From Sedimentisphaerales bacterium (GTDB lineage: Bacteria; Planctomycetota; Phycisphaerae; Sedimentisphaerales; SM23-30), in the NCBI GenBank assembly GCA_963663965.2, contig CAXXFK010000021.1:1-64000 (forward strand): 64,000 bases of DNA. The letters are read 5' to 3'. The translations under genes and the position numbers were made by a program. How positions within the stretch are numbered: the first letter of the stretch is position 1; every line of letters begins with the position of its first letter. This document shows positions 17,157-50,257 of the stretch, piece after piece. The notes below the pieces were generated by a model. That model ran no database searches. It saw only the letters and a program-made list of their open reading frames with translations, and was not told the DNA's origin.

Positions 17157-17771
17157 TTATGAAATACCCAATCGCAAAAAAGCAAACCCCGTAAAGCCCT
17201 TATTTCTAATTTCTTTAGCAAGTTCATCACTAAGTATCACCGGGGGAAAATAGCCCTTAATACGAAATATATGATGATCTCCAACACAATCTTCTTTGAT
17301 ATGCATATCTGAACAGAATTTAATGTGTCCGTCATCCGCCCGCATTATTTTTGATTTACTTAAATCTAAACAATCAATAGAATGAATTGGATTTATGAGT
17401 TTATAGCCGTTTACCTTTGCTCCATCCGATTCTCTGAATATTGGAGGGTCAAAAACTTGCATATCATTTTTTATATAGGGATATGCATACTCCGTTAAAC
17501 GTTCCGAGAATATCAGCCATGACACCGGATTGGGAAGGAGATCCAATTGCTTTTTATCTTCATCTTCTTTTTTAATGAAAAGTTTAACAAAATTGGGTAT
17601 TTCCCCTTCAAAGGGTTCTCCTTTCCAAAACACTGTCAAATCGAACATTTTGTCTTCGAGGTCTTTTATTCCTTTCCAAGCAACCGTTGGAGGAATTAAG
17701 CCCATCACATAATCACCTATTACCTGTCCACCTTCGTAATCATTATCGTACATTATTTCATGGTAAGGCAT
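17157..17771 (-). CDS. Immunity protein, Imm11/DUF1629-like
   Basis: DLLPNPVSWLIFSERL...YKLINPIHSIDCLDLSKS...HHIFRI...ILSDEL...GFTGFAF. Confidence 0.7.
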   Translation of the reverse strand: MPYHEIMYDNDYEGGQVIGDYVMGLIPPTVAWKGIKDLEDKMFDLTVFWKGEPFEGEIPNFVKLFIKKEDEDKKQLDLLPNPVSWLIFSERLTEYAYPYIKNDMQVFDPPIFRESDGAKVNGYKLINPIHSIDCLDLSKSKIMRADDGHIKFCSDMHIKEDCVGDHHIFRIKGYFPPVILSDELAKEIRNKGFTGFAFLRLGIS

Positions 17772-20110: not shown

Positions 20111-20219
20111 CGCCCTCCGGGTACTTAGCTAGTCGATTTAAAATCCCATCTCGAATAATCAGTAATATTCAATAGTCGAATAAAATAATTGGTATGATTG
20201 CTTTTGAAACAACCAGTAA

Positions 20220-20663: not shown

Positions 20664-20990
20664 CTATAAAGATATAGGAACAACTAAAAATATACCTGGA
20701 GTCTTTTTCATGGAATACCTATAAAAATGGCCCAAATATGCTCCTTGAACTGCATTTTCTTGCCAAGGGACAGCTAATCCCCTAGCATATGGTGGGCCAC
20801 CTTTCAAAGTTGAAGCATATGGAAACTCATCGATCCAATAGCCAGGCCTTCTTAGGTAACTATAACGTGCTATTACCCAGCTTCGATTTCTCCTTGTAGA
20901 AATTGGGGCAGCATGATATGTAAGAATCCCTTGGGGCAGGTCTTCAAGAGCCAAATAAGGTTGATTGGGAAGATGGCTTGGGATGTTATC
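20664..20990 (-). pseudogene. Orphan toxin tip, NucA/NucB-type DNase, lacking an Rhs core
   Basis: RRNR...IDEFPYASTLKGG...VPWQENAVQGAYLGHFY, matching the NucA/NucB DE(F/Y)P(F/Y)AST..GG...EN..QG pattern. Confidence 0.75.
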
Positions 20991-21363
20991 GTTCAGGTTT
21001 ATTTCCATACAATGCACAATATGCCATAAAAATAATTAAAACAATATATGCAAAAACGATTAATAAAATTACTAAATATTTTTTATTTTTCGTTTTTAAA
21101 TATTGATTTGTTAATAAATATATAATAGCAAACTCAATGCAAAAAACAAAAATACGAACAATAAGTGCTGTAATGCCTCCACTTTCACCATCTAACCAAG
21201 ATGCAATATTAAGATTTAGAACAGCCAAAGGCACACTTACAGGAGATAAAAGAAGCTGCCTTAGGGGTAATAAATATCCCATCACATCGCTCATCGCATA
21301 AGACAGTCCTGCAATAAATAAGGTAATGAGAAATAACCGCTTTGTTCTTATATTGCTTAACAT
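20986..21363 (-). CDS. Small membrane putative immunity protein
   Basis: 125 aa, 3-4 TM segments, GGAG RBS; follows the IS66-split toxin. Confidence 0.7.
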   Translation of the reverse strand: MLSNIRTKRLFLITLFIAGLSYAMSDVMGYLLPLRQLLLSPVSVPLAVLNLNIASWLDGESGGITALIVRIFVFCIEFAIIYLLTNQYLKTKNKKYLVILLIVFAYIVLIIFMAYCALYGNKPER

Positions 21364-24254: not shown

Positions 24255-24354
24255 AATAGCTCCTGTCCTGATTAGAATATTGAATGTCAAATAACCTGGA
24301 CAGATTTTATCACACCCCCGCTATCCCGCAACGGGGGGTTCGCCGAACGGATAC

Positions 24355-25069
24355 AATTATTATGTAGATATTCACGAATTTTTCCAGGTCCAAATACCAT
24401 TGCTGGGAACTTTAATGACTTTGACCTGCCTTGAATTAGAGACCGAAAAGCAAATACGCCTACTACTGCAACCATTGTCCATGCAACAATCCTAGTCACA
24501 GTTCCAACCATCCCTCCAATCAACATCCTGCCACTTGGATCAATCCCATTCACCGGATTCCCATGACAATACAAATACTTATGCAGCGACTGCGGATCGC
24601 TGATATTCCCGGCGTAGGGATCCAACCGGTTGAAGCGGCCGTTGGCGGGATCGTAGTAGCGGGCGCGGAGGTAATATTGGCCCAGGGAACTGTCGTATTG
24701 CTCGCCGGTGTAGAGCAGGTTGGTGGCCGGAGCGGCGGTGGGATTGCCGCCCAGTAGATTACCGTAACCATCATATGAATAAGCCTTTATTACAGTTTGG
24801 GCCTGATTGACCAGTTGCCGGGTCGAGCCCTGACCGTCATAAAGTAGAGTATCCGGCGTCGTATCGCCATCCAACGGATTGTCATCCTGGGCCAGCACAT
24901 CATCACCGATGGTATAGGACCGGATGGAATCCGGACTGGCGGTTGCCGGATCCGGATCAACCTGGTTGTAGGCCAACTCCGCCGCCACCTGGGCATACCC
25001 GGTCGGATTGGCCGGATCGATCTTGTCGTCACCTGCTTGAGACGATTTTGCAGATTATATTCATAGGTC
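24355..25069 (-). pseudogene. Orphan Rhs core and start of toxin, between IS256 and IS66
   Basis: 24538-25022 is a near-copy of ~31478-31962; NPVNGIDPSG is followed by a different toxin; frameshifting junction at ~25022. Confidence 0.85.
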
Positions 25070-25194
25070 GGTAGCGTCAAGAATCTTTCGCACATTTTTT
25101 ATTAGTCTTTCATCTGGTAGAGTCTTTCAATGGAGGAGGGAGGGACAACTCCCTGCCCTGCCTCCCCGAGGGGAGGCAAAAATTTATCGGACGA

Positions 25195-26436
25195 TCATGC
25201 CATGACCACCTCCTCTTTTTCAGCTTTTTTCTCCTTCTCCAACTCATACAAATGATCCATATTCAAATAACGCCTCGTACCCCATTGGGTGCCGGCAATA
25301 TGTCTCAGGCGGGCCGTGGCCAGCATCAGGGCCGAGTGACCATCCGGGAAATTGCCCACCGCGCGCGTACGACGACGAATCTCACGCATGATCCGCTCCA
25401 GTGGATTATTGGTTCGCAACTGCCGCCAGTGCTTGTCGGGATATTGATAGTAAGTGAGTGTTTCGAGATAGCTTTCCTGGACCAATTCAGCGGCCTTGCC
25501 CAGTTTCATCTCCCGCAATTTGACAATCACTTGCTCGGCCTTCTGGATCGCCGCCTGGCGGTCTTCCTGGGCATGGATGGCCTTGAGCATGGCCGCTACC
25601 TCTCGCACCTTCTTGCGCGGCACATGACTGAACACGTTGCGATACCAGTGGACCGTGCAGCGCTGCCAGTCGGCCTCCGGAAAAACCTCGGCCAGCGCGT
25701 CCACCAGACCCAGGCATTTGTCGGAAACAAACAGGCGAACGCCCTGCAGGCCGCGGCGCTTTAAATCGCGTAAGAAACCGCCCCAACCGGCTTTATCCTC
25801 TTTGGCGCCCTCGCAGGAACCCAGCACTTCGCGATAGCCCTCCTGATCGACGGCAATGGCCACCAGAATCGAAACATTCTTGACTTCGCCGCCCCAGCAA
25901 CGTTTCAAAACGATGCCGTCCAGATAGACATAGGGATACGACCCTTCCAGTTTGCGGTTGCGCCATTGGTCGATCTGTTGATAGACTTTCTGATTCAGAT
26001 TGCTGATGGTGCCCGCACTGACACGGGCGCCCCACAGGCTTTCGGCGATGTCTTCGATACGCCGGACCGAAACGCCGGCCAGATACATCTCGATCAGGGC
26101 CTCTTCTACCGAAGACTCCCGGCGTTTATAGCGCTCGATGATGGCGGTTTCAAAGGTCGTTTTTCGCAGCTTGGGCATCTTCAAATTCACTTCGCCGGTC
26201 GTCGTATGAAACTTACGCGGATAATAGCCCGCCCGGGTATCGGTGCGGGCCTGGGTATGTTCATAACGCTGGGCGTTGCAGAGCTGGTCCGCCTCGGCGT
26301 CCAGCAGGGCATTGAGCGTGTCTTCCACACTCTGGCGCACCATCTGGCCCAACTGATCCTTCATCTGGGATTGGTCGATTTTTAAAATTTGGTTCAAGTT
26401 TCTAACGTCACTGGTCGATTCTTCTGTTTGACTCAT
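25195..26436 (-). CDS. IS256-family transposase
   Basis: RAGYYPR, EMYLAGVSVRR, YVYLDG, VSDKCLGL, WQRCTVH, RTNNPLER..REIRRR. Confidence 0.95.
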   Translation of the reverse strand: MSQTEESTSDVRNLNQILKIDQSQMKDQLGQMVRQSVEDTLNALLDAEADQLCNAQRYEHTQARTDTRAGYYPRKFHTTTGEVNLKMPKLRKTTFETAIIERYKRRESSVEEALIEMYLAGVSVRRIEDIAESLWGARVSAGTISNLNQKVYQQIDQWRNRKLEGSYPYVYLDGIVLKRCWGGEVKNVSILVAIAVDQEGYREVLGSCEGAKEDKAGWGGFLRDLKRRGLQGVRLFVSDKCLGLVDALAEVFPEADWQRCTVHWYRNVFSHVPRKKVREVAAMLKAIHAQEDRQAAIQKAEQVIVKLREMKLGKAAELVQESYLETLTYYQYPDKHWRQLRTNNPLERIMREIRRRTRAVGNFPDGHSALMLATARLRHIAGTQWGTRRYLNMDHLYELEKEKKAEKEEVVMA

Positions 26437-26481
26437 AGTCAGTCCTTTCATTTGGTGGTAGGTTGTACCCCTCCCCATTGT

Positions 26482-27408
26482 CTAGACAAAAATATTGACT
26501 TTCTTAGATGGAGTTATCGCCACGGTGGGGGCTGTCGCCCCGGAAGGAGCCCGGAGGGCGACTGGAGGGGCGACAGCCCCGGCGAACACCTCGGCCGGGG
26601 TAAGGTATCCCAGGGCCTCGTGCAGCCGTTCATGATTGTAAAACTCAAAATAGCGGCCCAGGCCTAACACCGCCTCGGCCACCGTCTGGTAATCTCGCAG
26701 ATAGACCTCCTCCACCTTGACCGAACGCCATAACCGTTCGACAAATATGTTGTCAAATACCCGGCCCCGGCCATCCATGCTGATTAAAATCCCGGCATCT
26801 TTCAAGGGCCGGATAAAATCCACTGATGTAAATTGGCTGCCCTGATCCGTATTGAAGATCTCCGGGGTGCCCTGGCCCAGCGCCTGCTCCAACGCCGATA
26901 CGCAAAAATCGGCCTCCAGCGTGATCGAAACTTCCCAGCTTAACACATAACGGCTGAACCAATCCATGACCGCCGTTAAGTACACCCAGCCCTGAGACAT
27001 GCGGATATAGGTAATATCGGTCGACCAGACCTGGTTCGGCCGGGTAACCACCACCCCATCAAGCAGGTAGGGATAAATCTTGTGGGCCGGGTCCGGTTGG
27101 CTCAAATGCCGCTTAACGCGCGGATAAATCGCTTCTAAGCCCATCAGCCGGAGCAAACGGCGCACGCGCTTCGGATTGACGATGTGGCCTTGACGACGCA
27201 GCCACTGCGTCATCTTGTCAACCCCGTAACAAGGGGTTTTGAGGTATTGTTCATCCAATAGCCGCATCAGACTCTCATGGTACTCCGTGTCCCGGCAGGG
27301 ACGATAATAGTAACTACTGCGGGCCAGGCCCAGCAGTTCACACTGACGATCGATCGGAATCCGGGGATGGCCCGGCTCTATCGCCAGGCGCTTCTGCTCA
27401 AGTGTCAA
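26482..27408 (-). CDS. IS3 OrfB (rve DDE integrase core)
   Basis: WSTDITYI, FNTDQGSQF, DNIFVERLWRSVK. Confidence 0.93.
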   Translation of the reverse strand: MTLEQKRLAIEPGHPRIPIDRQCELLGLARSSYYYRPCRDTEYHESLMRLLDEQYLKTPCYGVDKMTQWLRRQGHIVNPKRVRRLLRLMGLEAIYPRVKRHLSQPDPAHKIYPYLLDGVVVTRPNQVWSTDITYIRMSQGWVYLTAVMDWFSRYVLSWEVSITLEADFCVSALEQALGQGTPEIFNTDQGSQFTSVDFIRPLKDAGILISMDGRGRVFDNIFVERLWRSVKVEEVYLRDYQTVAEAVLGLGRYFEFYNHERLHEALGYLTPAEVFAGAVAPPVALRAPSGATAPTVAITPSKKVNIFV

Positions 27409-27688
27409 GCCCGGATTTTTTTTTAAGCCAGTCCAACTCCATCGTGAGTTGGCCGATCTGCTGATATAACTGATCCACCAAAGCCTGCTGCTCGCGCTGA
27501 TCCTGGTGGCGCCTCAGAGAAAAGATCTCCGGCAAGGCATTCAAAAGCTCCTTTTTCCACTGGGTAACCTGAGTCGGGTGTACCTGGTAAACCTTGGCCA
27601 ACTCCGCCAGCGTCTTGTCGCCCTTCAGGGCGGCCAGGGCCACTTTCGCCTTAAACTGGGCACTGTGATTTCGCCGTTTGCCTTTCAT
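27398..27688 (-). CDS. IS3 OrfA (HTH)
   Basis: HSAQFKAKVAL...QIGQLTMELDWLKKK. Confidence 0.93.
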   Translation of the reverse strand: MKGKRRNHSAQFKAKVALAALKGDKTLAELAKVYQVHPTQVTQWKKELLNALPEIFSLRRHQDQREQQALVDQLYQQIGQLTMELDWLKKKSGLDT

Positions 27689-27851
27689 TAAAACTGTCTC
27701 CTGAATACGAATTATTCAATCGGTTCAGGCGGCAATTCCATCTAAAAATCACCGTTTTTTTGTCCAGTTTTTGGGGAGTATTATAGGTTTCGGTTTCAAA
27801 AACTTCATCGACCAGATGAAGGACTGTTTTTACGGTGTCCTATAATATGTG

Positions 27852-29788
27852 GTCGCGGTAGGGACTGGGATTACTCCCAGCCCCCCGCACAGATCCGTAC
27901 GAGCGGAACTACCGCATACGGCTCCTACCTCGGGTCATAACGAGCAGCTTGTAAGCGTGCCTGGGGGTACGGATGCAGAATTTTTAGGCTGCGGAAGCCA
28001 TCTTGCTATCAGTTGGTACATTCGCCTCCAGGTCATGCGGCTTCGTTGACTGCGTCTTCTTAACGCTCTGAACCAAAGCCAGGCGACCCTACGGCGAAAG
28101 GTGCCAAGATAGCGAGATGTATTAGGAACGGCGTAGTATCGGTACCAGCCGCTGATAACAGAGTGAAGCCACTGGCCCATCTCCGGAATCGAGGTATAGC
28201 GCCGGTATTTGAGCTGTTCCTTGATTTCCTTTAGCTTGGCCTGCACCCGCTTTCTCATCGGCAACCGGAGCAACATAAACCGACCTTTACTTGACTTGGA
28301 ACAGATGTGCGTAAAGCCAAGAAAGTCGAATGTCTCAGGCTTGCCTTTACCTTGAGTAGTCCTTCGTTCTGTCGCATAGCGGCCGAACTGAATGAGCCGG
28401 GTTTTGGCCGGATGAAGCTTCAACTTGAACTTGCCAAATCGATTCTGCAGGTCCGTATGAAATCTATTGGCATCCGATTGATATTGGAATCCGACAACGA
28501 TATCGTCAGCATATCGAACGATAATCATATGCCCTTTGGCGTTACGCTTTCGCCATTGGTCAGCCCACAGATCAAATACATAATGAAGGTAGATATTCGC
28601 CAGCAATGGCGATATGCTCCCACCTTGCGGGGTGCCTTCCTTGATCTGCAGAAGTTTGTCTTCTTCCACGACTCCAGCATTCAACCATTTCTTGATATGC
28701 CGTACTACTCGCGGGTCTCCGATTCGGTGCTCGACGAATCTAATCAGCCAATCGTGATCGATGGCATCAAAGAAGCCGCTGATGTCAGCGTCGAGTACCC
28801 AGTTTATCTTACGCTTGAGTATGCCGACATAGAGAGCATCTAAGGCGTTGTGAGCACTGCGACCGGGACGAAAGCCATAGGAGAAGCCTTTGAAGTCAGC
28901 CTCATAAATAGCGTTCAATACCGTAGTCGTGCTACGCTGGACGATTTTATCCTCAATGGTAGTAATACCAATGGGACGCTGGCGTCCATCCGGTTTGGGG
29001 ATGAATACCCGCCTTACCGGTTTTGCCCGATATGCCCCCTTTCTCAGTCGTTCTGCCAGGCTATTGAGATTGTTCTCTAACCCGGCCTCATACTCTTGCC
29101 ATGTCTGGTCGTCCACACCCGGGGAAGCCTGCCGCTTAATGCGATAGAATTCTTCTCTCAGGTGGTCGACATGATAGACATGATGCCACAGGGAAGTAAA
29201 CTTTAGCTGTTTATCCCGGGTGGCTGCCTGTCGTATTCGTTCTAATGCGTTTGGCAAGCTTTCCCGGCCCGGTGTCCGGCACTTGTGCAGTAGAGACGAA
29301 TTGCCCTTGGTCAGGCCCCTTCCCTCTATCCTCTCCGCCAAGGCATGGCAACCAGCCTCTTTGTTCGAGAACTTCTTAGGTACTATGGGCCTGTCCGACT
29401 TCCCCTGTTCGTTCATCACAGCAGTACTCCAATTGGATTTTCTGTGCGGACCACAGGATAATGTGTCCTGAGGCCAAACAAGGGATCTCCCAGTTCCTGT
29501 GCAAGAAGTGTCCATGCGTGCCTGGGGTCTTCGACCGCGCGGAGTCCGGAATGTCTCTCGCGATAATAAGACATCCGGTGTTGCCTTCCGACATTTTCGA
29601 CAGCGTCGGCACTCCGTTCTATAATGTACAAACTTACGCGGCTCAATACCCAGCCCGCATCTTCCCCTGTCAACGCTTCAAGCATACCGTTACCGGTATG
29701 CCCACATGACTCGGGGCCAATGTGGTTTGCTAAACCTTCATTGTACGGCTCTTGCATCCGCTACTCCTTGCCAGTTACCTGGCGCTAC
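27852..29788 (-). mobile_element. Group II intron (bacterial class E-like) inserted in the IS256 terminal repeat
   Basis: 5' end GTAGCGCCAGG; domain V GAGCCGTATGCGGTAGTTCCGCTCGTACGGATC; domain VI ending CCCTACCGCGAC; candidate EBS1 CGAAAA (29594-29599) complementary to the 5'-exon end TTTTCG. Confidence 0.9.
27935..29416 (-). CDS. ltrA: Group II intron reverse transcriptase/maturase, no endonuclease domain
   Basis: PGVD, IPKPDGRQRPIG, SYGFRPGR, GTPQGG, RYADD, FDFLGF, RRRSQR; apparent +1 shift at 27981-27985 near the C-terminus. Confidence 0.93.
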   Translation of the reverse strand: MNEQGKSDRPIVPKKFSNKEAGCHALAERIEGRGLTKGNSSLLHKCRTPGRESLPNALERIRQAATRDKQLKFTSLWHHVYHVDHLREEFYRIKRQASPGVDDQTWQEYEAGLENNLNSLAERLRKGAYRAKPVRRVFIPKPDGRQRPIGITTIEDKIVQRSTTTVLNAIYEADFKGFSYGFRPGRSAHNALDALYVGILKRKINWVLDADISGFFDAIDHDWLIRFVEHRIGDPRVVRHIKKWLNAGVVEEDKLLQIKEGTPQGGSISPLLANIYLHYVFDLWADQWRKRNAKGHMIIVRYADDIVVGFQYQSDANRFHTDLQNRFGKFKLKLHPAKTRLIQFGRYATERRTTQGKGKPETFDFLGFTHICSKSSKGRFMLLRLPMRKRVQAKLKEIKEQLKYRRYTSIPEMGQWLHSVISGWYRYYAVPNTSRYLGTFRRRVAWLWFRALRRRSQRSRMTWRRMYQLIARWLPQPKNSASVPPGTLTSCSL

Positions 29789-29809
29789 CGAAAAATATTT
29801 TACCTTATC

Positions 29810-30100
29810 CATAGGTCACCAACTCGACTATCACTTCAGGATCGGCCTCATCCACCGGAGTCACAATTGTCTTTTGCTCAATCAGCGAGCCATTATCATC
29901 ATAAGCGTATTGGATCGTCCGGTTATTTTTCCCCCAGATCGCTTCAGCACGGCTCTCTAACGCATCGTACAATTGCGACTGATCGGCCATAATCCGCATA
30001 TCCCACGGAGAAATGATAAACAACAGTACCAGCAGACCAGTCACCGATCGATGGAACAGCCTTAACCGGCCACTGGATATCTGACCGGGCCGTCCAGATC
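29810..30100 (-). pseudogene. Head of the orphan Rhs module interrupted by IS256
   Basis: Near-identical to ~19854-20111 (RLRLFHRSV.GLLVLLFIISPWDMRIMADQ...YAYDDNGSLI); continues at 25069 after the IS. Confidence 0.85.
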
Positions 30101-30202: not shown

Positions 30203-30727
30203 TCAAGCTGTTTCATAATCAATCCATTTTTCAGTAGACAATAAACACTGATTGCATTTAATTGAAATCCATATCCAATCGAACGAATCAGGCCAATCAT
30301 TAATACTGAAATCACCATTAACTTCATTTAAAAATTCATTTTTACTAATGTATGATAATTCGATGTCAACTGAATGATAACACGAATAACATGATTGACA
30401 ATCCCATTCTATCATTTGAAGTTTAGATGAAATATCTTGCATTTCATTGCGGCATATGTAACCATCCCATCCATGTTTATATTTATCAAACAAAATATAT
30501 TCAGAATTACATTCTTTGCATCTAATTTTGATACGAAATACTGATTTATTATCAATATAAGATGCCGTTGGATGCTTATTTCCATTAACCATTTTGACAT
30601 TACCAGGGTAAAATAAAATAAACTGTTCACACATACAAATACACTTGATGTGGTATTTATATATCAAATTATCACCAGCCAGTTTTATTGGATAAGCAAT
30701 ATTTCTTAAATGTTTCGGGGGTTCCAT
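30203..30727 (-). CDS. Cys-rich putative cognate immunity protein of the giant Rhs toxin
   Basis: Starts 16 nt after the Rhs stop; AT-rich; several CxC/CxxC pairs; ends WIDYETA. Confidence 0.72.
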   Translation of the reverse strand: MEPPKHLRNIAYPIKLAGDNLIYKYHIKCICMCEQFILFYPGNVKMVNGNKHPTASYIDNKSVFRIKIRCKECNSEYILFDKYKHGWDGYICRNEMQDISSKLQMIEWDCQSCYSCYHSVDIELSYISKNEFLNEVNGDFSINDWPDSFDWIWISIKCNQCLLSTEKWIDYETA

Positions 30728-30743
30728 ATTTCAATCTTTATTT

Positions 30744-33700
30744 CTAGTATAATTGTCCTATTTCTACAACTTCGAATTTGTTTAAACGGTCACCTAATAT
30801 TTGTCTATAATACCAACCTTTTTCAAGTAGTTCAATATCATTTTGACCTGGACTAGGAACTTCAAATAAATTTAGTTTGCCATTAGGAAGAACTTCTGCC
30901 CAGTCTGGCATTTTCCTAGATTTTATCGCACCTTTTGTTATTCTACTTATAGATGAGTGAGTGTATATCTCATCCGCAAATCCTAATTGTTGCCTATTTA
31001 CTACATTCCATTTTATTGTTGCCCAATGTTCATTAAATGTTGGATGTGGTTTAGACCACATGACTTTCGTTGTTAATGATTTCATTGTAGACATACCAGC
31101 CAAAGTGGAGCCTAAGCTCAAACCAGCATTTATTGTATTTGAAGCATGATATGCCATTTCGATTCCATCAAGGAACCTTTTCTCTGCTAATAGGCTATTA
31201 TACATTACAACCTGGTTATTATAACCTAAGTTAATGTAGAAAGTTTCAGCCATAGCCCTTAAGTCAGGATCTTTGATTTCAAGCAAATCTTTCTCGTATT
31301 CATCTCTGACTTGACCAAGATATGATATCGCATCTGGTTTGCTACAAGATTCTATTGATCCAAGATCTTTTTCTAACTTGTTTCGATAACCGCTAGTAGC
31401 AGACAGAATTGTTCCAAAAGCAATAGACAATATAGTTGTAACAACCATTAATTCTGTGACAGTAAAATGCCCACTAGGATCAACCCCATTGACCGGATTC
31501 CCATGACAATACAAATACTTATGCAGCGACTGCGGATCGCTGATATTCCCGGCGTAGGGATCCATCCGGTTAAACCGGCCATTGGCGGGATCGTAGTAAC
31601 GGGCGCGGAGGTAGTATTGGCCCAGGGCGCTGTCGTATTGTTCGCCGGTGTAGAGCAGATTGGTGGCCGGGGCGGCGGTGGGATTGCCGCCCAGCAGGTT
31701 GCCGTAACCGTCGTATGAATAGGCCTTTATTACAGTTTGATCCTGATTGACCAGTTGCCGAGTGGAACCCTGGCCATCGTAGAGCAATGTGTCCGGCGTC
31801 GTATAGCCATCCAGCGGATTGTCATCCTGGGCCAGTACATCATCGCCGATAGTATAGGACCGGATGGAATCCGGACTGGTTGTTGCCGGATCCGGATCAA
31901 CCTGATTGTAGGCCAACTCCGCCGCCACCTGGGCATACCCGGTCGGATTGGCCGGATCGATCAGATAGAATGTCATCTGAGGATTATTCCGTGCGGTTGG
32001 CTCATTATCGACCAGGGCGGGAGCCGTATATTTCAGCGCCGAAACCCGGATCCCTGCCTCATTGTAATCGTATTCGACAATCTCGAGTTCGCCGAAACCA
32101 TCATTTGTGACCACCCGTTCCAGCCGATTCTGTAAATTGTACCGATAGCTCACCGATTCGCTCTCGGCGCCGCTATCGAGCGTGAGTCTGGAGATCAGCG
32201 AGCCATTGTCATCATAAGCATACTGGATCACCCGCCCATTCCGGCCCCAGTCACAAGCGCTGATCTGGTCATAACTCACCGCCGCCTGACAGCTTTGCCG
32301 CAGCATGGCCGGCGAGATAATAAACAGATACGCCAGGAAGACCGATATCCCGCGCGTGGCCAGACCGAAGCGGGGCTTGATTTCACAGCCTTGGCCTTTG
32401 CGAACATGATAAATAATCGCCGTGATTAACACCGGCGCCAGCATCATCGCCAGTGTGATGACCAGGAGCAATTGCCAGAGGTAACGGTCCATCCGGGTGG
32501 GCAATCCCATCGCGAACGCCTTAAATCCGCCAATACGGCCTTCATGCCCCGCCATGGTATAGGTGATGTCGCCATGATCATGATACGCGTAAATCCGATC
32601 CTCTCCAATATCATAAGCACAAACAGGCCCCGATTGTGTTTCATATTCCAGTTGATCACGATCGTTGTATGAATAAGTCGTTGTCAATTCCTGACCGCCA
32701 ACGGTTACAGTTCGACTGGAGCGATTGCCGACAAGATCGTACCCATATTCGATTTGATACTCATCACTACCGCCCAATAACGAGCTTTCATCTATCAGAC
32801 GATTCAATAAATCATAACTATATGTCACAACGCGATTTTCAGTGCTGCCGTTTTGTTGGACTTGCTCGGTCACGCTATGACGAAGACCATCCGCATAATG
32901 CGTATAAATAAAGCTGCTTAATACTCCGGGATTGGGATTGGTCAATGCGTCATATTTCGAGTCATAATTATGCAATCCCGTCAGGCGATGCAGGGCGTCA
33001 TAATGATAACAGGGCGAAACGGAATTGCCCAATTCCATAGATTTTCGACTGCCCGCCTCATTATAACCATAGCGGTTATTCATTGCCTTAAGATTGTCGT
33101 TAGCGCTCTCTAAGCGATTCAGGCAATCATACTCATACTGAGTATCGCTATATACGGTAGTACTGTCATCCCGCTTATGTGTCCAGGTTCGATTCTTTTG
33201 CCCCGTAATCAGGTTATAGCCATAGTTTACCACACCCTGGGGCGTTGTGATCGATTCGATCTGGCCATCGAAATCATAATCAATCTCTTCCACCACTACA
33301 GGATCTTCGCCGGCAACGGTTTTGGTTGTTTGCCATAGTCGTCCAAGGTTATCATAATCGTAATGATATTTTTCCGACCAGTTGTCTTCAGAATCATCAT
33401 AGTTCTGATTCAGATAATTGCCCTTATCGGTATCATCTTCGGCGTAATATCGCTTTTCTTCAAGCCGGCCGTCATTATTATACAAATACGCCACGGCCTG
33501 TTCTTCGTAATCGGTATGCAGCTTTAACCGATTCTGTTCATCGTACTGCCAGGATTCAAAGAGGGTGCTTCCGTGGTTCGTATTCAGTTCATTGTATATT
33601 TCATCAGCAGTATCCAATTCCTCAAATGCCTCAATGACCTCCACGTCTGAATAGTTATCTGAATACAGGAAAGGCTGATACTGGACTGTCTGCTGCTGGA

Positions 33701-36700
33701 ACTCATTATATTTAGATACTGTTATTCTCCAAAGCGGATCAATTTTTGCAACCTGGTTACCGTATTGATCGTAAATATAACGATAGCTCGGATGTTCAGT
33801 TCCATCGTCCGGATCGGGCAGGGTAACTTTGATTAACTGACCGGTTACCGGATCATATTCATACTGCTTCTTATCATTATTTGTAAGCGCCCCAAGAGTT
33901 TTTATTGTCGGTTCGGTTTCCCATTCCTTCCGGCCATAGACATCATATCCAACATGAATAAATGTGATGCCAATACCGTCAACACTGGGCAATTGGGTCG
34001 TGATCAGTCGGCCCTGTTCATCATAAGAATACTCGGTTCGATGCGCATATCTGTAAATAGGGCTGCCATCCGGTTCTGAAATTCCGCCATTCGCATCAAA
34101 AGAGCCAGGCTCATAAGTATATTTTCGTTGATTGCCATCATAAGCCGTCCGCGCGGTATACTCATAATCATAATCCGCCACAGCGATCGAATTCAGATCG
34201 GTATCGATGACATGCCATTTGCCCTCGAGGCGATAGTCCGTTGTATCATCCAGATTAAAGGCCTGATGATCCAGCGTCATAATCTGGCGGCCGGCCAGGT
34301 CGTAGCGATAGCCGGTGACGCGTTCGTAGCCGCCATCATCGAGTACGACCGCTCTCGATGTTCTACCGGCGCAATCATATTCGGTCCGGGAATAAGACAA
34401 CTCATTTCCCGCAACCGGCTGGACACGGGTCTGCCCATCCACCACCCACCAGGCCAACTCGGATTCACCCGCATCCTCACTCGAAGCCCAGGCGTTACCG
34501 GCGATGTAATTGGCTGGCACCCGTTTACCGGCAACCCGGCACGTCTTGTCGACAAAAGTTTCCAGGTGAATCCGCACATTGGCCCATCGACGGGTACGCT
34601 CAACCTGGCCCAATGCATCGTAGACGGTTTCAGTGGCGGTAGCAGGCTGGCCGTACTCGTGGGTATCGACCGACACTAAGGTCCGGCCTTCCACATCGTA
34701 CAAGGTTTGCGATACGGTCAAAATATTGGCAGGATCATTTAAATAGCTATCAACATCGATCCCGGACGCAGGCGCCCGGGCCGTTACGGTTTCCACTACC
34801 TGGCCCAGTTCATCATAGTAATACCGGGTGAGATTCCGGTTTTCATCGATGGTATAATCAACCTGGCCGATACAGTTATAGACCGTTTCACTAAGCGTTC
34901 GCTCACTGACCTGGGTCATATCGCTTTCATCGTAGACTAACTGCTTCGTTTGGGTGGTTCGCCCTTGCCGGTCCAGGGTCGGTTTATTTAGAATCCGTTT
35001 AATGACCGACGTTTCAGCCGGATCTTGCCATCTCGTCCAGCTTTCCACCTGATTGCCATTCGCATCATATTTGCTGAACTGGCGATAGACAGGCGTCTCA
35101 TTGTATCGATGAGGTTCGCTGACACTATAGGGCTGATCGAAGGAATTGCTTACATCTACATTATACCAATACGTGGTATAAATTTCATTTTCATTGGTCG
35201 GATTGTCATCGATATCCTGAATCACCTGACATATCCGGCCCTGTTCATATTCATACTCGGTCCGGGACAGGATGGCGCCGGGAATCTGCAATATCTCACT
35301 TACTGGTAATATGCCTGCGCTATTGGCAAAATACTGGGATTCCGGTTTGATCTGTGCAGTGGATCTCAAGAAGTCACGATTTTCAAGGTCCACACGATAT
35401 TCATTTACAGTTACCGATACCGGATCGTAACTGACTAACAATCCGTCACCGTTCAGGGCAGCATTTTTTCCGGATATGGAAACGTCCACGCGCCCTTTTT
35501 CATCATAAACCGTAATCGAGACATTATTGACCGGATCGATTGTCACTTCATGGTACAGTTTGGATGTGCCGGGATAGTTATAATACTCATAACGCGTTAC
35601 CGCATCAACCGGAACTTCCGGGTAATTTTCCGGATTGGGAACCTTTTGCGTCACACTGGTCGGCCGGTCCGGCTGCGCCACACTCGAATAACCATATAAG
35701 GTTTCTCGGGCAGGTGCACCCGATACGATTCGGGTTTCTGATACAACGTTGCCGCGTTCATCGTATGCGTAAATAGTTGGATTGGTTTTATCCGGGTCAC
35801 TGCGCGAATACACGGTCTCGGTTTTGCCCGAGATAGCGTGACTAAGGGTAATCTGGTTGCCTTTCGCGTCGATGGTCCCGGTCAGCCGGCCCTGGTCATC
35901 ATAAAGATAACGGATCGGTTTCAAACCGCGTGGATCGATAATATCGGTGATATAATGATCTTCCGGTGTAAACCGGGCAATCAACTGTCCATCCTCATTG
36001 CGATTTTCACCGTCATAACAATATTCAACCGTTTCCTCAGGCTCGCCGGTTTCATCCAGTTTATGAACATATTTCAGATTACCCGAACTGTCATATTCAT
36101 AACTGAGCAGCGGCGCCTGAGTATGATTGGGAGAATTAACCTTGGATATCCGATTATCTTCCCAATCGAGTGTAATCGATTTGGAGAACGATGTATTACC
36201 ATTTAAACAGGATTTAACCTCAACACAACGCGGATGCTCGCCGTCGGAATTCTCATCATAAATAAATTCAATCTTATCGCCACTGGTCATCTCGATAGAG
36301 GCCAGGAAGGGCTTGCCATATGCCTGATATTCAAACAAATCTTCTTCCTTTAAGGCATTATCATATCCCTGCACAAAATGACTGCCATAATCTTTCCGCT
36401 CAAAGTTATAAACCGTTCCATCTTGCAGGGTCAGTTTATACCCCGGGAAATCCTGAATACCAAGATTAAGTGGCGCATTGCTTATTAGAGGGATATTATA
36501 TTTATTGCCAATAGCCCAGAAATAGCCGACTCCATACATTCCACCACCATAGCATAATTTGCAGGTTATGGATGTTTCTAAAACGTCATTTACTCCATCG
36601 GGAGCCTGATAGACGACTTTCCAGTTATTAGTGCCGGGACCGCTACATGGCAACAGTGTATAGGCAAACACAACTCGTCGGCCATCCGGTAGCGTCAAGG

Positions 36701-39700
36701 TCACATCACGATCAAAATCTCCTCCCATGCGGCACGTCCATTTGCCATTGTCTTCGCTTTTCGTTATGCGTCGCTCATTCAGTTGCATATCCAGATTGGC
36801 AAATGAATAGCTCCAGCCATAACCAAATTCGCTATCATAATCTTTATGCAGACTGTTATAGGTCCGCGACACTCGGATAGGGACTCCTCCAATTGGAATT
36901 ACCAGATCTTCCTGGGTAAATTGCACATTACCTATCTTGAGAGAACTGCTTAATGCAATTTGCGTTTCGTCGGTATCATAATGACCGTGGCATCGGACAA
37001 CCAGTTTCAAATTATAGACACCATTCGGTACATTAGTTAAATCCAACTCGCCCAGTATACCTGTGTCATTCTCATTTCCGATACGTTGTCTTCGATACCC
37101 ATTGATTAAATATCCCGGTGTCAGATTTCGATAGAAGGTTCCATTATCATCAAAGATTTCGACCAAATATTCAATATCGCTATTGGCCGATCTATGATAC
37201 GCCTTACCCATTAAGGTAAACAGACCATCCTGAATAATAGTGGGCGGCGTTCCATCTACATGAATATTCAATAAATTATTATCACCAAACAGATCATCGT
37301 CATCATCAACTGGATTCAAATTGCTGATTTTCGCCACCGGCTTACCCAATGCTAATATAAATTTCACTGTCTCGGCTAAGGGATTTCCAGAGACATCATA
37401 CAATGTTGCAATCCAGGTGCCATCATCCTCTTCAGTCAAATCGCTCAGCCAGGCATCATCTGTAATATAGGTAGTTGCGTTCTGGTCATCCGCTTCAAAT
37501 TCATATCCATTACTAAGGACAATTTTACTCCAGGGCACTGTCATATTGAAGGTAAGTACTTGTGGGTAGTCTTCGACAACTCGGGGAGATACTGAAAACT
37601 GATTTTGTACTCCAAACTGTTTAGTCGAACTGCTTCGATTGCCGGCATTATCAATCGCTTCAAGTGTTAATGTATAACTTGACCCATTTCTTAAATGAGC
37701 CGTACTGAATTCACATGTTAAAGCATTACTGTGTTCGACACAAAGTATTTGCCCATTGCTCAATTTCAAGATCATCACTTGAATGCCGGAACCGCCATCT
37801 TCATCATGAGCATCTGCATTAACGGTTATCGATCCTGTCACTGAGTTGTCATTATCGATATTACTGGCTCTATTGTTATAGGTACCGGTAAAGCTATCGA
37901 TCGTCGGCGCCGCTTGATCTTCGCCCCGGGGAAGAACTGAAACGGTTATCGAATCTGAAATATTTGAATCCTCATTTGCAACTATCGTCATATCATAATC
38001 AGACGGTTCCTGGAATGACACGAACGGATTAATCACCGTATTGGATGGATCAAAGGCAATACCGTTAGTAATCTGCCATTGGACTTGAGTATCAGCAGGC
38101 AATACCCAGGCATCCTTGAGCCATATCTCATTTTGGGGCCATGTTACCGTTTGGTCTTCCCCGGCATTAACCAGGATTCCTTCGGTATCGGCACCTACAT
38201 ATATTACAACAGTATCAGTCGCCGTATCATCCTGACTTAAGGCAGTAAGCAAATGATCTTTTACAGATACCGTAATCTTATACAGTCCTGGCCTATTAAA
38301 GGTAATTTCAGGATTATCAGGTGCTGTCGTATCAATTGAGTATATGTCTGGCTCTGCAGTCCAGATGACTTCTAAGCCATTATCTCCAAGAACCAGAATA
38401 TCATCTTTGATGATCACATCATCTAAAGATATACTGACTTGCGCCTCGGTTAAAAGAATTGACCGGTTACGACCGGCATAAACGATCGGCAAGCTATTTT
38501 CTGGGTAAATCTCAATCACCATGAAATCAGATCCAATAAGCTGATCCTCACTGGATGGACCCTGAGTTCCCAGATCCTCATACACATTCAAGGTTACGCG
38601 ACACTTACCACTAGTTTGAATACCCTCTTCGAATGTTATGATATTTTCATTTTCTCCAGATCCGGCAGCTGCAGTGAAATCAAAATCACTTGCATACTGC
38701 CAGGCTAAATAATAACCAGAGACGCCCTGGTAAGCGATGGGAAGGTCACCAAGAATCATTGGATAAATTGAGACCGGCTCCTGACCCGCAATCCAAGTAC
38801 GATCCGGCCCAAGATCAACATATATACCTGATCGGTTAATCGTTGCGATAGCAGATGAACCGGTAATAACCGTGTTATCCTGAGAAGACAAAAGTTCAAG
38901 AGAAAAGACATATTGACCCGGATTATTAACGAGCGCTATGTAATCCACTTGATGAGTATCTGGATTGAACCGGGTTGTTATTTGAACATCATCCGGTGTT
39001 CCACTGTGATACCAATTATAATAAGTAGCTTCTTGATCTGCTCCCAATTCGGGTTGTGCGATCAATAAGATTTCTACCGGATTGTCATCAATCTGAGTCG
39101 CTACTGCTGGTTCAATTGCAGCCGTTATGGATATGGCCGGCTCCCAGGATATGCTTATAACCAGTGAGTCCATATCGATAATAGCATCGTTTTCATCCAG
39201 GGCCAGGAGATACAACGGATAGTCACCTGCGCCAGGCAAAGTAATGCTTGTATTCAAGTCACTATCATCTTCCAGCCAGATTTCTTCGGTTCCATAGTAC
39301 AGCCATTTTGTCCTGGGAGTTGTGCTCATACCCGATAACTGCACATTCAAGTTGTCTTGAAGAAGATTGAGAGAAATATCTTCGCCGGCATCAACCCAAT
39401 CCGGCGAATATAGATCCTTCGACCCGGAAATAGATACTTCCAATATGTCGATAGCTACTAACTGTGAGGTATTATCATAAGCCGATAAAGATACCTCATA
39501 AAGTCCCGGAGCTAAGCCAGACACCTTGGCCCAGGTCGATAACTGCTGTGCATTGCCAAACTCGAATAAACCATTTGGCGAGCTCCACTTAAATGTATAT
39601 TGACTGGGATCGGCTCCCAATAGCGTTCCTTTTAAATTTATATAACCCGCAGGCGCATCATTTTCTAAACTGGCGGATAACTCAATCGTGGATTCCTGAA

Positions 39701-42700
39701 CACAGATTTCCACATAATCCGCTCCTATCATATCACCGTAAGAATTTGTGGCTATTAATGCAATTTGATAGTCGCCGACTTTACCAAACAGAACCTCAGG
39801 ATTAAGAGTATGGTTTTCAGCTTCATACATCATAAAACCATCAGGACCACTGATCTGCTGCCAGACAATAGCATACGGCACTTCACCAGCAATGGAACCC
39901 TTTAATTGAGTTCCTGCCACAAAGCCCGGCGAACCCAATTGTAAGATCTGATCCATGCCGGCTTCAACCGTAACGACCGGATGATCGACTAATACGAATA
40001 CGGTATCTGAACCGACAAGTCGCAAATCACGTAAGACAGTAAATTGAAATTGATATAATCCCGGTTCAGAGAAATTCACTAATGTATTCGTTTGTGATGG
40101 ATCGTTAATATGAGCTGAGGACGGTCCTGATATGACAGACCAACTGGAAGTATAGCTGGCGTTCGCAATACCATTAATCATTCCTGATAGTTCTACATCA
40201 CCCCCTAATACAATATTTTGGTTCTTCTGATAAACCTCATCATCAATTTTGATCTGCGCTTGAATGACTTCATTTCTTGCCAGAGCAATCCAGACCGTAT
40301 CGCCGCCCACTACGCGACCGACATTATCTTTGACTTTCAACAGTAATCGATAGGTCCCCGGCAAGTCATAAGTGAATGTGACCTGGGGATTCAAAACACT
40401 TGAATTTGAAAATGCCACATTACTGCCTTCTGGCTGACTGATCACGGACCATTCATAACTGATTTCAGACATACTATTATATGGAACATCTTTGAGCTTG
40501 ACATAAGCATCATCGAACCATACCGACAGTTGATTTTGTCCAACTGGATAATCGATGATTCGACTCACGCCGGCAGATATGGTTAACGGTGAATATTCGT
40601 AGGCACCGAAATCTATGTTGGAATTACCAGACTGCTCATTATACATAATGCGAGGTTGATCATTGATATCGATATATAGATCACTTTCGACAATTTCACA
40701 ACCTCCCCTGATCGCACCTGAAGTATTTAATAAAGAATTAAATATATTTTCGTTATAGAAATTTTCATCTATGTCATCACGATTAATATTAAATCCAGCT
40801 CCATCACATCCATAATAGAGCTTTCCATCATCCCCAGGTATCAAAATATTATTAAATATTTGCGGATATCCATAAGGAAACGATGAAAAACTATTATATA
40901 TTCTATAATTACTTTCTGAAGGCGGATTTTCAATAAAAGGACTATCGATAGTATTATTCCATATCATCCCTTCGCCACATGCTTTATACAAAAACAATTG
41001 ATGATACATTCCTTCGCCATTATCTGATACAATATTACCAATAATTCGAGGGGTTCCAGCATAAGTATATCCATCAAAATCATCGTTCTCAAAACATATA
41101 CCATATCTTGAATTATCAAAGATTTGATTGCAACTGATAACTGGTCCTGATTGACCGCACGTATAAATGCCACTATGACTATTTCCATAAATAATGCAAT
41201 TCTCAATCCTGGGCGATGCCTCATTAATACAATTTATTCCACTTTTTCCACCCATAATTGATAAGCCTTTTATAGTAGAATCATTATGACTTATCTCTAT
41301 AATATTAAGACCTGCATCCGGCGAAATAATTGTTGTGTTTTGGACCTCATCCCAATTATCTGGCTGCACACTTCGAATAATCATCGAAGGGTACTCATTT
41401 GAAAGTATTATTCTTTCGTTATAATCACCGGCTCCAACGATAATTTCTTCATCATTACTGACTACTTCACTTACAGCCATTGATATTGTTTGATATTTCT
41501 TGCTTTGAGTAATATTAATAACCGTAGACTCGCCAGTATCAAGTAATTTGGGTTCCAGGTAACTTTCTAATGTTGAATTATTAGTACTACTTGTCCAGCG
41601 CCCCCAAACCCATACATTACCGAAACGGTCTTTAGCAAAACTAACCCGATTACCAGCAGATATGGAAATAACATCAGACATATCAACATTACATACTTTT
41701 ACCGGAGTAGCCTTGAATTCGTTTCCGCTACTATTACTTTCAATGCCTAATTGACCATAAGAATTATTACCCCATGACCATACATTTCCATACTTATCCA
41801 ATGCTAGGCTATGATCAATACCAGCATCGATTGAAATAATATTCTTAAGTATGTTCGACCCCTGTTCACCGTTCTCGATAAATTGTTCACCGCCATTTAC
41901 ATATATCGGTTCATAAGCCACCTCGAGTTCAGTATCGTTAGTTCCTAAAAGACAATTATTTGGATAGCAAGAATTTAAGCCCCAAGCTAACACTCGGCCA
42001 TCATATTCATTACTATCGATATCATCTAACATCTCTAAGGCCAACACATGATCCTTACCTGCAGATATTGACACGATATTCTCTAAATAATCTGAGTCAT
42101 TGTACAGTTGACTACCACGATGTACAGGTAAAGGACTCACAATATTGCTATTAATAGACCCAATACCTAACATACCGCCATAATAATGACCACATGAATA
42201 CACCTTTCCTTTACCATCTCGAATGATGCCGTCGTCAAGAAAGAAAGTTCTCCAGAAATGCGAAGTGCTGATATTTATTACATTTTGAAGCGAACTAACA
42301 TCATTAATATTCTTGGGTAAGGCTGTATTAAAATATCCATTCGAATCATCATCACAGCCTGATTCTCCATCAAAGCTGCATCCCCAAAACCAAGCGCGCC
42401 CTAACGAATCATAGGCAAATCGGCTATGAGCATTTGATGCCATACCAATAATTATAGGTTCTGTTACTATTCCAAAATCCATTTTTTGAGGTATTCTTGT
42501 ATTGCCAAGACAATTACATAAACTTATATCATAATCTGACCATCCCCATGAATACAGATTACCACTTAAATCAATCGCCATTGAGTTATAAGCGCCAGTT
42601 GATATAGCAATAATACCAGTCAAATAACTACCAGAATTTTGAACATTACTATGAACGAGTTGAAAATATGGATACCAACTCGAATCATAAGTATTATCCC

Positions 42701-45700
42701 AACCTAAGGCCCCTCCTTCCCCTTCCGCATTCGTGAAACGATTACAACCTATTGATTTTGTAGTATGATCGCTATTAATACATAAAGCGTGCACATCAAT
42801 GTATGTTGCATCATATGAATCACTGCATGATATATTATACGTAGATTCAACACGAACTGTAACATTATCTTCAAGGATAATATCATTAACTAATACCTTA
42901 AGAGCAAAAATATATATACCCGCCCGATAGTCTTGAAAGTGTACTTTTGTTTCTATAGAGTCGCTATTATCAATAGCAACCTCAGCTCCTATAGGAGCAT
43001 GCTTTAAGCTCCAGGTAATCTGTTCAACTGACTCATTAGAAGTATCGACGATCCCATATAAGTATGCAAAATTTCTAGGCAAATATGTAACTTGGTAATC
43101 TCCGGCATCAATTGAGTAAATTGGATTCTCTGAGACTATCTCGATATCCAATAAATCGTAACTGGTAAACTGGCCATCGGAAACCTCCAGACGGAATACA
43201 TAATGACCACATTTTGTGAAGTCGGCAATAGCATGCAAGATTTCTGGATCTTCAATCGTGATTGACGTTTCATCACCTCGTACCAGTGTCCAGAGATAGG
43301 TAAGCTCGGCAAGACCTTCAGGTTGATCTTCAATGGTGAGTAATGGAATGGTATCCATAGTCCCAAGATCATACTTGAGCATCTTGAATTGCTCTGCCGT
43401 AGTTTTGGTATCCAGAATAAGTTTATTGTCCGTTGGATCGGATTCTACGCCCCAATATATGCGTGGCGGAGTATTGGTTTGATCTGGCCCAACTTCAATT
43501 GATACCAGATCGAATCCGGTTTTCTCACCATCACTTGCGGTTAATTTCAGAATATAGACGCCTTCACAGGTAAATACGGCTTCAACTGCTGATGCATTGA
43601 TCTGCTCGATAGCAACGGGCAATTTATTATGTTGCTCAGCATTAAATAACACATCACCCGGTCCGCTGACTTTTTCCCAATATGCCGACAGAATCCCGAA
43701 AGGTTTGCCGTCATCCTGAATAGTCGCATTCAAAGACCAGAGATATTGCTGTTCATTACCCGTATCACCAACACTGACATTATTGATTTGAACTTTGGGA
43801 GCAGATTGCCGGTTCATATCGGGCATGATACTCACCTTAATCTGATCCGCCAATATCTCACCACGATCCGCTCCATTCAGTTTTAAAACCAGATCGGCCC
43901 GATCGAATACCTCGAAATAGGCGTCATCGATGGTAAAGGTCGCTTCGGCATCGGGCTCATCGGTTGGACATTCCACGGTAATGCCTGCCGGAGAAAAGAT
44001 CGTCTCCCAGTTCCAGCTAAGCGCATTACTGCCGGTTACCTTCGCCCCGGATAACAGGGTTTGCAGTTCAGGCAGGGTAATCACCTTATTTTTTCCCGCT
44101 TCCAGAGTAAACGGCGGGATAACTTCTACAGTTACCTCGGCGCTGCCGGTGGCTCCCCGACTATCCATGACAAAAAGTTTAACCGTATGGCTCCCCAGGG
44201 CCAACCTCAGCTCGATAGAGGAACCGGTTCCGTCCGGATAGGGTTGATCGTTACCATCGGTCCAGAGATAGGACTGTATACTGTCTTGAAGGTCAACATC
44301 GCTGGATTCGCTGGTAAATGTGACTAGCGCAGTACCATCCTGATCATCATCGACCATAACCGTATTGTCCACATGAATTACTGCCTGAGGCGGGGTATTC
44401 ACAATAATAGCCACCGTATCAAACCCTGCGGCATGATAACCATCAGACACAACCAGCGTATAGGTATAGCTCCCGGCCGCTAAGGTCAATGATACCTGAT
44501 CATTCTGTCCGATCACGTTCCCGTTTTCATCCTGCCATTCGTAGGATAACTCTCCATTTTCAGGATCCAGGGAACCACTGCCATCCAGACTGACTTCTGC
44601 GGATACCCCATCAGTGATATGAACGATCTGATCCTCACCCGCATCGGCAACCGGCGGCCGGTTAATGACCACGGTGATCTCCGCCGGCCCCGAGGATGCA
44701 TCGGCCTGATCCGTCACCGTCAATCCAATCACATGCTCACCCCAGCCACAATTCAATGTTAATGTCTGGCCCGTTTCCCCGGCCAGCAACTGGCCATTAC
44801 AGGTCCAGATATACTCAATCACATCCCCGTCATCCGGATCACTCGATTGACTGCCGTCAAAAACAACCGCCACGCCTTCAATGTCATCCATATCGTGAAT
44901 CACTGTCGTATCATTGACCACAAAAAATTCCGGCGAAGCAATCGACAGACTCGCCACCGGAGAGTGATTCGTAACCACACAAATCTCATCCGCCCCAATA
45001 TCGGGAATCCCATTGATTACCCGACTATCTCCATCAATATCAACATGCCCCATGAAAGCCGCCGCTACCCCGGCATCTTTGCAAGGCGAACCTTCTTGTA
45101 GATGCCAGTTCGGTATTAATGAACTTGGAAGTACTTTACCCCAATTCCGGATAAATGTACGCATTCCCTTATACATAGATACATCATCATCAATACCATC
45201 AATACCTTCAATTTCTCTATAGTTTGCTTGAGGGCAACCTGTAACTTGATAAAGCATTCCATTTCCATTGAATTCAATATAATCACCAATTTCAAAATAG
45301 CTAGGGATTCTAAATAAAATCCAATTGTCATTAGCAGGTTGTCCTGTTCTTGGTAAATGATCACATAATAGATAGGGATTAACAAATTGAGGATCAATAC
45401 TGAAATTGTTTTCTGCATGAAAGTGATAATCCACATTCCAATCATCAGCATCCTGTTCGAAATTAGATTCATAGTTTATCCCGGGCCATAATGAAGCAGT
45501 CGGCAAAAAATAGCACAAGTTATTCATAAACCAGATATTTTGAGATGCAGACGAATTTTTAAAAGCGATATTACTTTCCCTTAATCCACAATTACATAAA
45601 AAATTCTTACTAATAATGCTGTTATTAATATATAAATATTTAAAATCATTGTCAGGACCTGATCCATGTTGCAGATATTTCATGCCTTGCCCTGCACTAT

Positions 45701-50180: not shown

Positions 50181-50257
50181 CAGAAACACTCCTTAAAGCC
50201 TTTATTTCAATTGAATCCTTATTACCTTTACACTAATTATAACCGACAGAATTTTTG

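Follow-up and report, generated by a model that had tools for sequence, protein, structure and literature searches.

The closest described systems to the locus studied here are the Sec-exported Rhs/YD polymorphic toxins (Zhang et al. 2012, PMC3482391) and the teneurin-like proteins (PMC13018210) which, in the accessible parts of both sources, share with it an N-terminal signal peptide, adhesion domains, a YD shell, a DPxG core, a variable toxin, immunity genes, orphans and the absence of a dedicated delivery machine nearby. How Rhs-type toxins are built, displayed and delivered without a T6SS is stated as open in the accessible part of the 2026 paper (PMC13018210). A two-helix hydrophobic element is common to our locus and to the prePAAR/TMD T6SS Rhs effectors that work with Eag chaperones (PMC7773334; RhsA, PMC8765631); however, as far as the available portions of these papers go, the effector TMDs are N-terminal, lie beside PAAR, are shielded by the chaperone and are meant for the prey membrane, whereas here the element lies in the middle of the shell, and the protein is a Sec-type precursor in which no PAAR was found. 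The Tc toxin cocoon (TcB + TcC, YenB + YenC), which is recovered among our fold matches, resembles the cage that we propose below in having two chains, the second of which holds the protease core and toxin; the Tc chains are separate genes or fusions with a C chain of ~670 aa, while the split predicted here falls within one ORF, ~270 aa before the DPSG end. The protein described here belongs to the Rhs polymorphic toxins and not to the T6SS TMD effectors, and it differs from the systems of PMC3482391 and PMC13018210 in an internal anchor-plus-signal module, none being described in the accessible parts of those two papers.

The window, i.e. the whole 64,000-nucleotide stretch of a Sedimentisphaerales bacterium genome that was analysed, encodes a 6,481-aa protein in a single open frame (window positions 30744-50189, minus strand, as for all features of this gene and its two neighbours below), identified as a giant Rhs/YD polymorphic toxin precursor by family matches and a cage-like AlphaFold model. 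All the motifs quoted in an initial annotation of this DNA lie within it. Its domains run in the order signal peptide, PKD, LamG, beta-helix, RCC1, PKD, DUF6531, RHS repeats (PF05593 and TIGR01643 matches), Rhs core, DPSG and C-terminal domain. The Sec-type signal peptide (aa 1-27, 50109-50189) was judged by eye, and the Rhs-associated core (31470-31787; TIGR03696, E 2.4e-17) ends in the DPSG autoprotease site at aa 6237, recognised from the sequence motif and the family match. The 241-aa C-terminal toxin domain (30747-31469) starts with a hydrophobic helix; a restriction-endonuclease-fold identity, with scores of at most 0.81, is a weak lead only. Toxin families were detected in 8 of the 30 relatives scanned, six over the cut-off, and comprise AHH, HNH-HHH and NucA/NucB nucleases, a Tse3-like muramidase and an M35 protease, with weaker REase-7 and REase-9 matches. 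Directly downstream of the giant gene lies a Cys-rich 174-aa gene (30203-30727), by position a candidate immunity gene, for which a family-database scan returned no match. Directly upstream is a TPR protein with a signal-peptide-like start (50258-52690), assigned from a family match and position. Signal-peptide-bearing genes occupy the same upstream place at G007:C48, at G025:C17 (where the giant gene is insert-less) and at G041:C20, the lengths, with the window's gene included, being 540-810 aa; these counterparts are recognised by position and start, the TPR family match being confined to the window's gene. The upstream gene is a candidate periplasmic chaperone.

The initial annotation had placed two hydrophobic helices joined by a basic loop inside the YD repeats, and this is confirmed: YSYNDRDQL (aa 5839-5847, 32649-32675) and YAYDDNGSLI (aa 5990-5999, 32193-32222) lie where they were quoted, and the gap between them, given as ~140 aa, is 142 residues. 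The whole insert (aa 5848-5989, 32223-32648) interrupts one YD hairpin 247 aa ahead of the DPSG; across 72 rows from the best 150 of 236 profile matches the distance from insert end to DPxG has a median of 235 aa (range 202-303, with a few mis-picked sites). At the same place, between a D-x-L-x-x-E strand and a Y-x-Y-D-x-N-G strand, insert-less relatives have a turn of ~5-12 residues. Read from its N-terminal end, the insert consists of a small extra beta subdomain with a YAYx motif (32538-32636), conserved in the close subfamily and absent from divergent members; an amphipathic, likely interfacial segment with a G-L-P-[ST] motif (32481-32534), the Pro being present in 98% of rows; helix 1 (aa 5904-5927, 32409-32480), which its hydrophobicity and conservation predict to be a stop-transfer transmembrane anchor; a basic loop from aa 5928 (32352-32408), predicted to be cytoplasmic, the end of which would be the n-region of an internal signal peptide; helix 2 (aa 5947-5963, 32301-32351), with a predicted signal-peptide h-region ending in Ser-Pro (32310-32351); a c-region (32283-32309) with a predicted signal peptidase I cut at aa 5969/5970 (window 32283/32282); and a conserved Y-x-x-L-x4-W motif (32244-32282), the predicted new N-terminus of the C-half. 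Helix 1 contains the most hydrophobic 19-mer of the whole protein (Kyte-Doolittle 2.72), a value that a single one of 2000 shuffled versions of the Rhs part attains. The hydrophobicity of helix 2 (1.69) is within chance (354 of 2000 such shuffles), and the reality of helix 2 therefore rests on its conservation across relatives.

We measured the anatomy of the module on 153 rows, namely the best 150 of 236 profile matches plus three earlier relatives, to which all the row counts in this and the next two paragraphs refer; 90 rows span the whole module and 131 are gap-free around the predicted cut site. Helix 1 has a KD19 of at least 1.6 in 88 of the 90 full-length rows, with a median uncharged run of 20 residues, and the loop is net positive in 89/90 (mean net charge +5.4), which by the positive-inside rule would place it in the producer's cytoplasm. 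The 29 residues past helix 2 are net zero or negative in all 90. Helix 2 itself is shorter: its uncharged run has a median of 15 residues ending in Gly/Ser-Pro, and KD19 is at least 1.6 in 67/90. It consists of a basic n-region, ~14 hydrophobic residues, Gly/Ser-Pro, a (-3,-1) site and a non-basic tail and so has the marks of a Sec/signal peptidase I substrate, i.e. a basic n-region, short h-region, helix breaker, non-basic mature start and agreement with the (-3,-1) rule (as given in the available part of PMC9360617). The Trp of the Y-x-x-L-x4-W motif is present in 134 of 134 rows that reach it. The candidate alternatives of a Tat or a lipoprotein signal for helix 2 were ruled out by motif counts, with a Tat-like RRxFLK motif in 3/125 rows and a lipobox Cys in 0/125. 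The two helices thus do not look equivalent, helix 2 resembling a cleavable signal peptide and not a plain transmembrane partner. The initial annotation's suggestion that the hairpin tethers the cage in the producer's membrane is accordingly supported in part, namely for helix 1, given the N-terminal signal peptide and the hydrophobicity and loop counts above.

We consider it somewhat probable, from these sequence features, that export stops at helix 1 in the producer's inner membrane and resumes at helix 2, which is itself cut, so that the cage would consist of two chains, the N-half being tethered. The principal rival reading, to which we assign an appreciable but clearly minor probability, is an uncleaved two-pass hairpin: both helices would remain embedded in the producer's inner membrane, the loop facing the cytoplasm, a one-chain cage would be tethered by its wall, and the small residues past helix 2 would serve helix packing. 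Hydrophobicity and loop charge predict the same topology for this hairpin, and a helix 2 with KD19 of at least 1.6 in 67/90 rows suits it, although an uncharged run of only ~15 residues does not. The arrangement of small residues is also harder to accommodate. A (-3,-1) site occurs at profile column 130 (99 rows) or column 128 (58 rows) in 129 of the 131 ungapped rows, i.e. in two alternative registers, part of this conservation being selection since these very columns contribute to the score of the profile by which the rows were chosen; the best column pair avoiding columns 130 and 128 shows the (-3,-1) pattern in 52 of 131 rows. Positions -2, +1 and +2 vary freely, and in two divergent proteins the helix runs out in textbook sites, V-A-H-A and L-A-H-A, which have a Pro at -6 and -5. 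Furthermore, a permanently two-pass cage could leave the periplasm only with two further cuts.

The covariation within the site can be read both ways. All 31 rows without a small residue at column 130 have Val, Thr, Ala, Ser, Leu, Ile or Cys at column 126, as compared with a -3-type residue there in only 30 of the 100 other rows, as if the cut site were shifted two residues back. This 126/130 covariation is far above that of the next of 25 column pairs (p 0.035), the rows being kin and an independent-pairs, tree-corrected test having, with only 2 pairs, no power; the site-type state changes ~10 times on a quick tree, at least three of the changes being forced by well-supported branches. Columns 126 and 130 are, however, i/i+4 neighbours on one helix face, and packing of an uncleaved helix could give the same covariation. 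Also in favour of the uncleaved hairpin is a null result: when the genome was scanned with a helix-2 profile, 37 of the top 100 hits fell at protein starts, against a 38% baseline and 27-35 for helix 1.

Two AlphaFold models bear on the same choice. Model A covers the last 956 aa (pLDDT 79, 63 rows) and model B 221 aa (pLDDT 90, 71 rows). Both keep the flanking strands and place between them a further set of beta hairpins and three helices, one short and two long. Model A matches Rhs cages at E 4e-35, the match being local and the TM-scores low (0.15-0.42). Of the protein, the shared core alone matched the teneurin-like structures 9ifo and 9pt5. In both models a single helix runs through the predicted cut site, and in model B the second helix is continuous over 34 residues with pLDDT mostly 85-93, as the uncleaved hairpin would have it. 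We count the helix through the site against the cut model, together with the null helix-2 likeness scan, the insert-less close relatives described below and the long predicted c-region, which extends 7-9 residues past the Pro.

The initial annotation had alternatively proposed that the hairpin enters the target membrane close to the place where the toxin leaves. On this reading it would act like the TMDs of prePAAR T6SS effectors, being carried shielded, inserted into the prey membrane and helping the toxin to cross. Two-helix TMDs do act in this way in T6SS Rhs effectors (PMC7773334, PMC8765631, in the parts available), and the family contains nucleases that act in the cytoplasm. The location of the insert speaks against the proposal: Rhs cages are sealed at the aspartyl-protease core end, the proposed toxin exit being the N-terminal plug (accessible text of PMC8765631), and the insert, 247 aa before the DPSG, sits at the core-sealed end away from that plug. 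The export context points the same way. Judged by eye, signal-peptide-like starts occur in the window protein and in the giant genes of G007, G520 and G041, as well as in 6 of 18 long matches drawn from the best 150 of 236 (the other 12 look cut). In a Sec-exported chain helix 1 would meet the translocon first and enter the producer's membrane, with the basic loop kept inside; N-terminal Sec export thus favours a producer-side role over prey insertion. Twelve long relatives carry Ig/PKD, RCC1, VWA and DUF6531 domains and no PAAR or VgrG domain, the window protein has no PAAR family match, and VipB and Phage_GPD gave no match in the source genome, which is 94.6% complete. The same genome encodes signal peptidase I twice, 3 rhomboids and 2 exosortases, and secretins were matched 8 times over the cut-off. 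Moreover, a separate hydrophobic helix after the DPxG, found in 46 of 70 rows, is a better candidate for toxin entry. Taken together, we regard target-membrane insertion of the hairpin as very unlikely.

The post-DPxG helix (31395-31469, minus strand, in the window protein) follows the DPxG directly in 46/70 relatives, counted on 70 rows from the best 150 of 236 matches plus three earlier relatives, and is present in insert-less relatives too. It is type IV prepilin-like (F/L-S/T-x-x-E-L/V) in 9 of these 70 and, on visual inspection, also in the window protein, P0059 being especially pilin-like and P0125, P0149 and others sharing the trait; Pfam N_methyl did not match the prepilin-like segment. 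It is possibly a toxin entry segment or a pilus mimic.

The remaining reading, to which we give the lowest probability of all, is that the helices are soluble and packed inside or against the cage, as are the predicted TM helices of mosquito SGS1 (PDB 8fjp), which are buried in its Rhs shell (PMC9935623, in the portion available). SGS1 is a Rhs/YD protein with predicted TM helices; in that same portion, however, these follow the protease site as cargo inside the cage and the protein has no signal peptide, whereas here the wall itself is interrupted, and the strict charge asymmetry of the module would serve no role in a buried element.

With a family profile built from 15 rows and a threshold of E <= 0.001, the insert was found in 236 of 1.84 billion cluster representatives (clusters at 50% identity). 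It is present in 26 of 251 genomes of the order, and in a phylum-wide sample in 2 of 401 genomes, i.e. the source genome and one relative only; the named insert-bearing relatives are one Sedimentisphaerales and one Phycisphaerae bin, and divergent insert-bearing members include P0003, P0004, P0022 and P0182. An artefact or chance origin was ruled out by the single open frame and the recurrence in 26/251 genomes. Database comparisons yielded little: Pfam and NCBIfam gave no consistent match to the insert among the 15 members (a CNNM match was below the cut-off), PDB sequence matches were weak and of the TM look-alike kind, the best at E 0.01, a Foldseek search with the insert model returned nothing at E <= 0.001, the ESM Atlas searched with the insert gave generic RHS clusters only, at 0.78, and a plasmid search with P0003 gave partial cyanobacterial Rhs matches only, none covering 80%. 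In P0013, which the profile does not match, aa ~85-190 hold a similar TM, basic loop and signal-like segment elsewhere among the YD repeats, possibly an independent version of the module.

The insert had been described as conserved across Rhs variants, which holds within one clade only. The initial annotation had also named homologues lacking the insert as evidence against its reading, and for a part of the family such close relatives exist: 13 related Rhs proteins are insert-less, comprising the main genes of G008:C4 and G025:C17 and 11 others. N-terminal signals are present in both main giant genes (7,391 and 6,331 aa, respectively); the insert is missing from these genes and is carried by the orphans that follow them. 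On a tree of the post-insert half, one branch splits 81 insert-bearing from 13 insert-less rows (SH-aLRT 86, quick method). This split, together with the insert-less main genes followed by insert-bearing orphans, makes it likely, on the sequences compared, that the insert has a single origin and moves together with its own C-half through C-terminal displacement. The insert modifies the making or holding of the cage and is dispensable for giant Rhs proteins of this type. At G008:C4:14159-21263 lies a type II secretion-like cluster which, with a 4,134-aa giant protein, is at most ~25 kb upstream of the insert-less gene (labels by eye). In another order of the class, a 548-aa stand-alone ORF (L049, G471:C18:8079-9722) has a basic and hydrophobic start, a Y-x-Y-D-D-N-G strand, a core and a toxin, has no giant Rhs gene in the 40 kb covered and groups with P0022 on the tree; it may be a natural C-half or a remnant.

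All four copies or pieces of the insert in the genome lie within the window: that of the main gene, a hairpin near-copy and two orphans, both of which set in shortly before helix 2. The near-copy (16222-16545, minus strand) was missing from the initial annotation; it consists of the full hairpin only, is 86% identical to the main-gene hairpin, and its DNA homology to the main gene ends one codon past the predicted cut site. One orphan module (18700-20124, minus strand) holds helix 2 with a site of type x-M-A, YD repeats, the core and a different C-terminal domain. The other orphan piece (29808-30098, minus strand) begins within the loop, immediately before helix 2, is broken by mobile elements and is followed by a core piece at 24290-25054. 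The orphans had been said to carry a divergent version of the hairpin; in fact those with GLLVLLFIISPW (at 20.1 kb and 30.07 kb) hold its helix 2 and not the whole hairpin. An R-I-M-A precedes the predicted cut both in the N-terminal signal of the main gene (50109-50120) and in the internal segment of the orphans (~20020-20045, both minus strand). The nested mobile elements interrupting an orphan Rhs module (25068-29791) are two transposase-type elements, which we take to be IS256-like and IS3-like, together with a reverse transcriptase of group II intron type (27935-29515), with an 8-base direct repeat near both ends of the nest. The orphan array further holds an Imm11 immunity gene and a NucA/NucB nuclease piece (17157-17771 and 20664-21017, minus strand). 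The Rhs modules of the window end in different C-termini, so that the variable toxin, immunity genes and orphans characteristic of polymorphic toxins are all present.

Of 21 pieces truncated at the 5' end, 10 set in at profile positions 93-101, right before helix 2, several of these being kin. We weighed whether the internal signal and C-half form a self-exporting toxin cartridge, with such orphans being produced and exported by themselves and snapping in trans into the tethered half-cage. This we consider improbable. A start codon with a ribosome site was mostly lacking in the 17 pieces inspected (14 of the 21 plus 3 others), with neither element consistent across the orphans, which counts against their independent expression.

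Returning to the stop, restart and cut that we favour, we envisage the following sequence of events. Sec would export the chain from its N-terminal signal peptide until, after ~5,900 residues, helix 1 stops the transfer and leaves the basic loop in the cytoplasm, as the measured hydrophobicity and charge suggest. Helix 2 would then re-enter the translocation path and the last 512 residues, i.e. the final YD hairpins, protease core and toxin, would be exported. Signal peptidase I is predicted to cut after aa 5969, upon which the cage would close as two chains, the Y-x-x-L-x4-W start of the C-half packing back on it. During loading and closing, the tether would keep the still unfinished cage at the membrane. 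Some of the family's toxins are nucleases, which have to reach other cells, and the tether is therefore probably shed at a later stage, much like GlyGly-CTERM anchors, through a second cut that is postulated solely from need; the search returned no site or enzyme for this removal. That the cut model gives no route for a tethered cage across the outer membrane counts against it. There is precedent for the proposed cut, since a signal peptidase I site engineered after an internal helix releases its passenger in E. coli (PMC5449189, as its accessible part reports).

Parts of the module recall other known signals. Helix 1 is similar to the GlyGly-CTERM/rhombosortase and PEP-CTERM/exosortase signals (in the available part of PMC6219818) in its tripartite build of motif, transmembrane helix and basic tail, and rhomboids, exosortases and secretins are present in the genome. 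Unlike those signals, helix 1 is internal and not C-terminal, its motif is G-L-P-[ST], and the NCBIfam CTERM models gave no match among 15 members at E <= 5. In its working, the module is likely to resemble a polyprotein cut by signal peptidase. Flavi- and pestivirus polyproteins show, in the sources as far as available, the same order of anchor, internal signal and signal-peptidase cut, their sequences being unrelated to ours. A search of the accessible main texts and abstracts on Rhs (internal signals, Planctomycetes/Phycisphaerae, signal peptidase, shell structures) found no description of the module; the architecture lists of PMC3482391 and PMC13018210, of which the accessible parts were covered, could mention such proteins. 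The insert is real, conserved and apparently undescribed. Among bacteria, Bradyrhizobium FbcH is reportedly a polyprotein cut by signal peptidase after an internal signal.

For the study of how such toxins are made, the module gives a defined starting point, since a single cut site and a single topology are predicted for it and the loci G008:C4 and G025:C17 provide natural pairs with and without the insert. Should the cartridge reading prove true, the cell could fit different toxins to one giant adhesin-cage and would need no recombination to do so. A genuine cut would mean that in one clade the Rhs cages are made from two chains encoded in one reading frame, using the housekeeping Sec machinery and signal peptidase in a polyprotein strategy best known from viruses, and that the YD wall tolerates a chain break at a defined hairpin.
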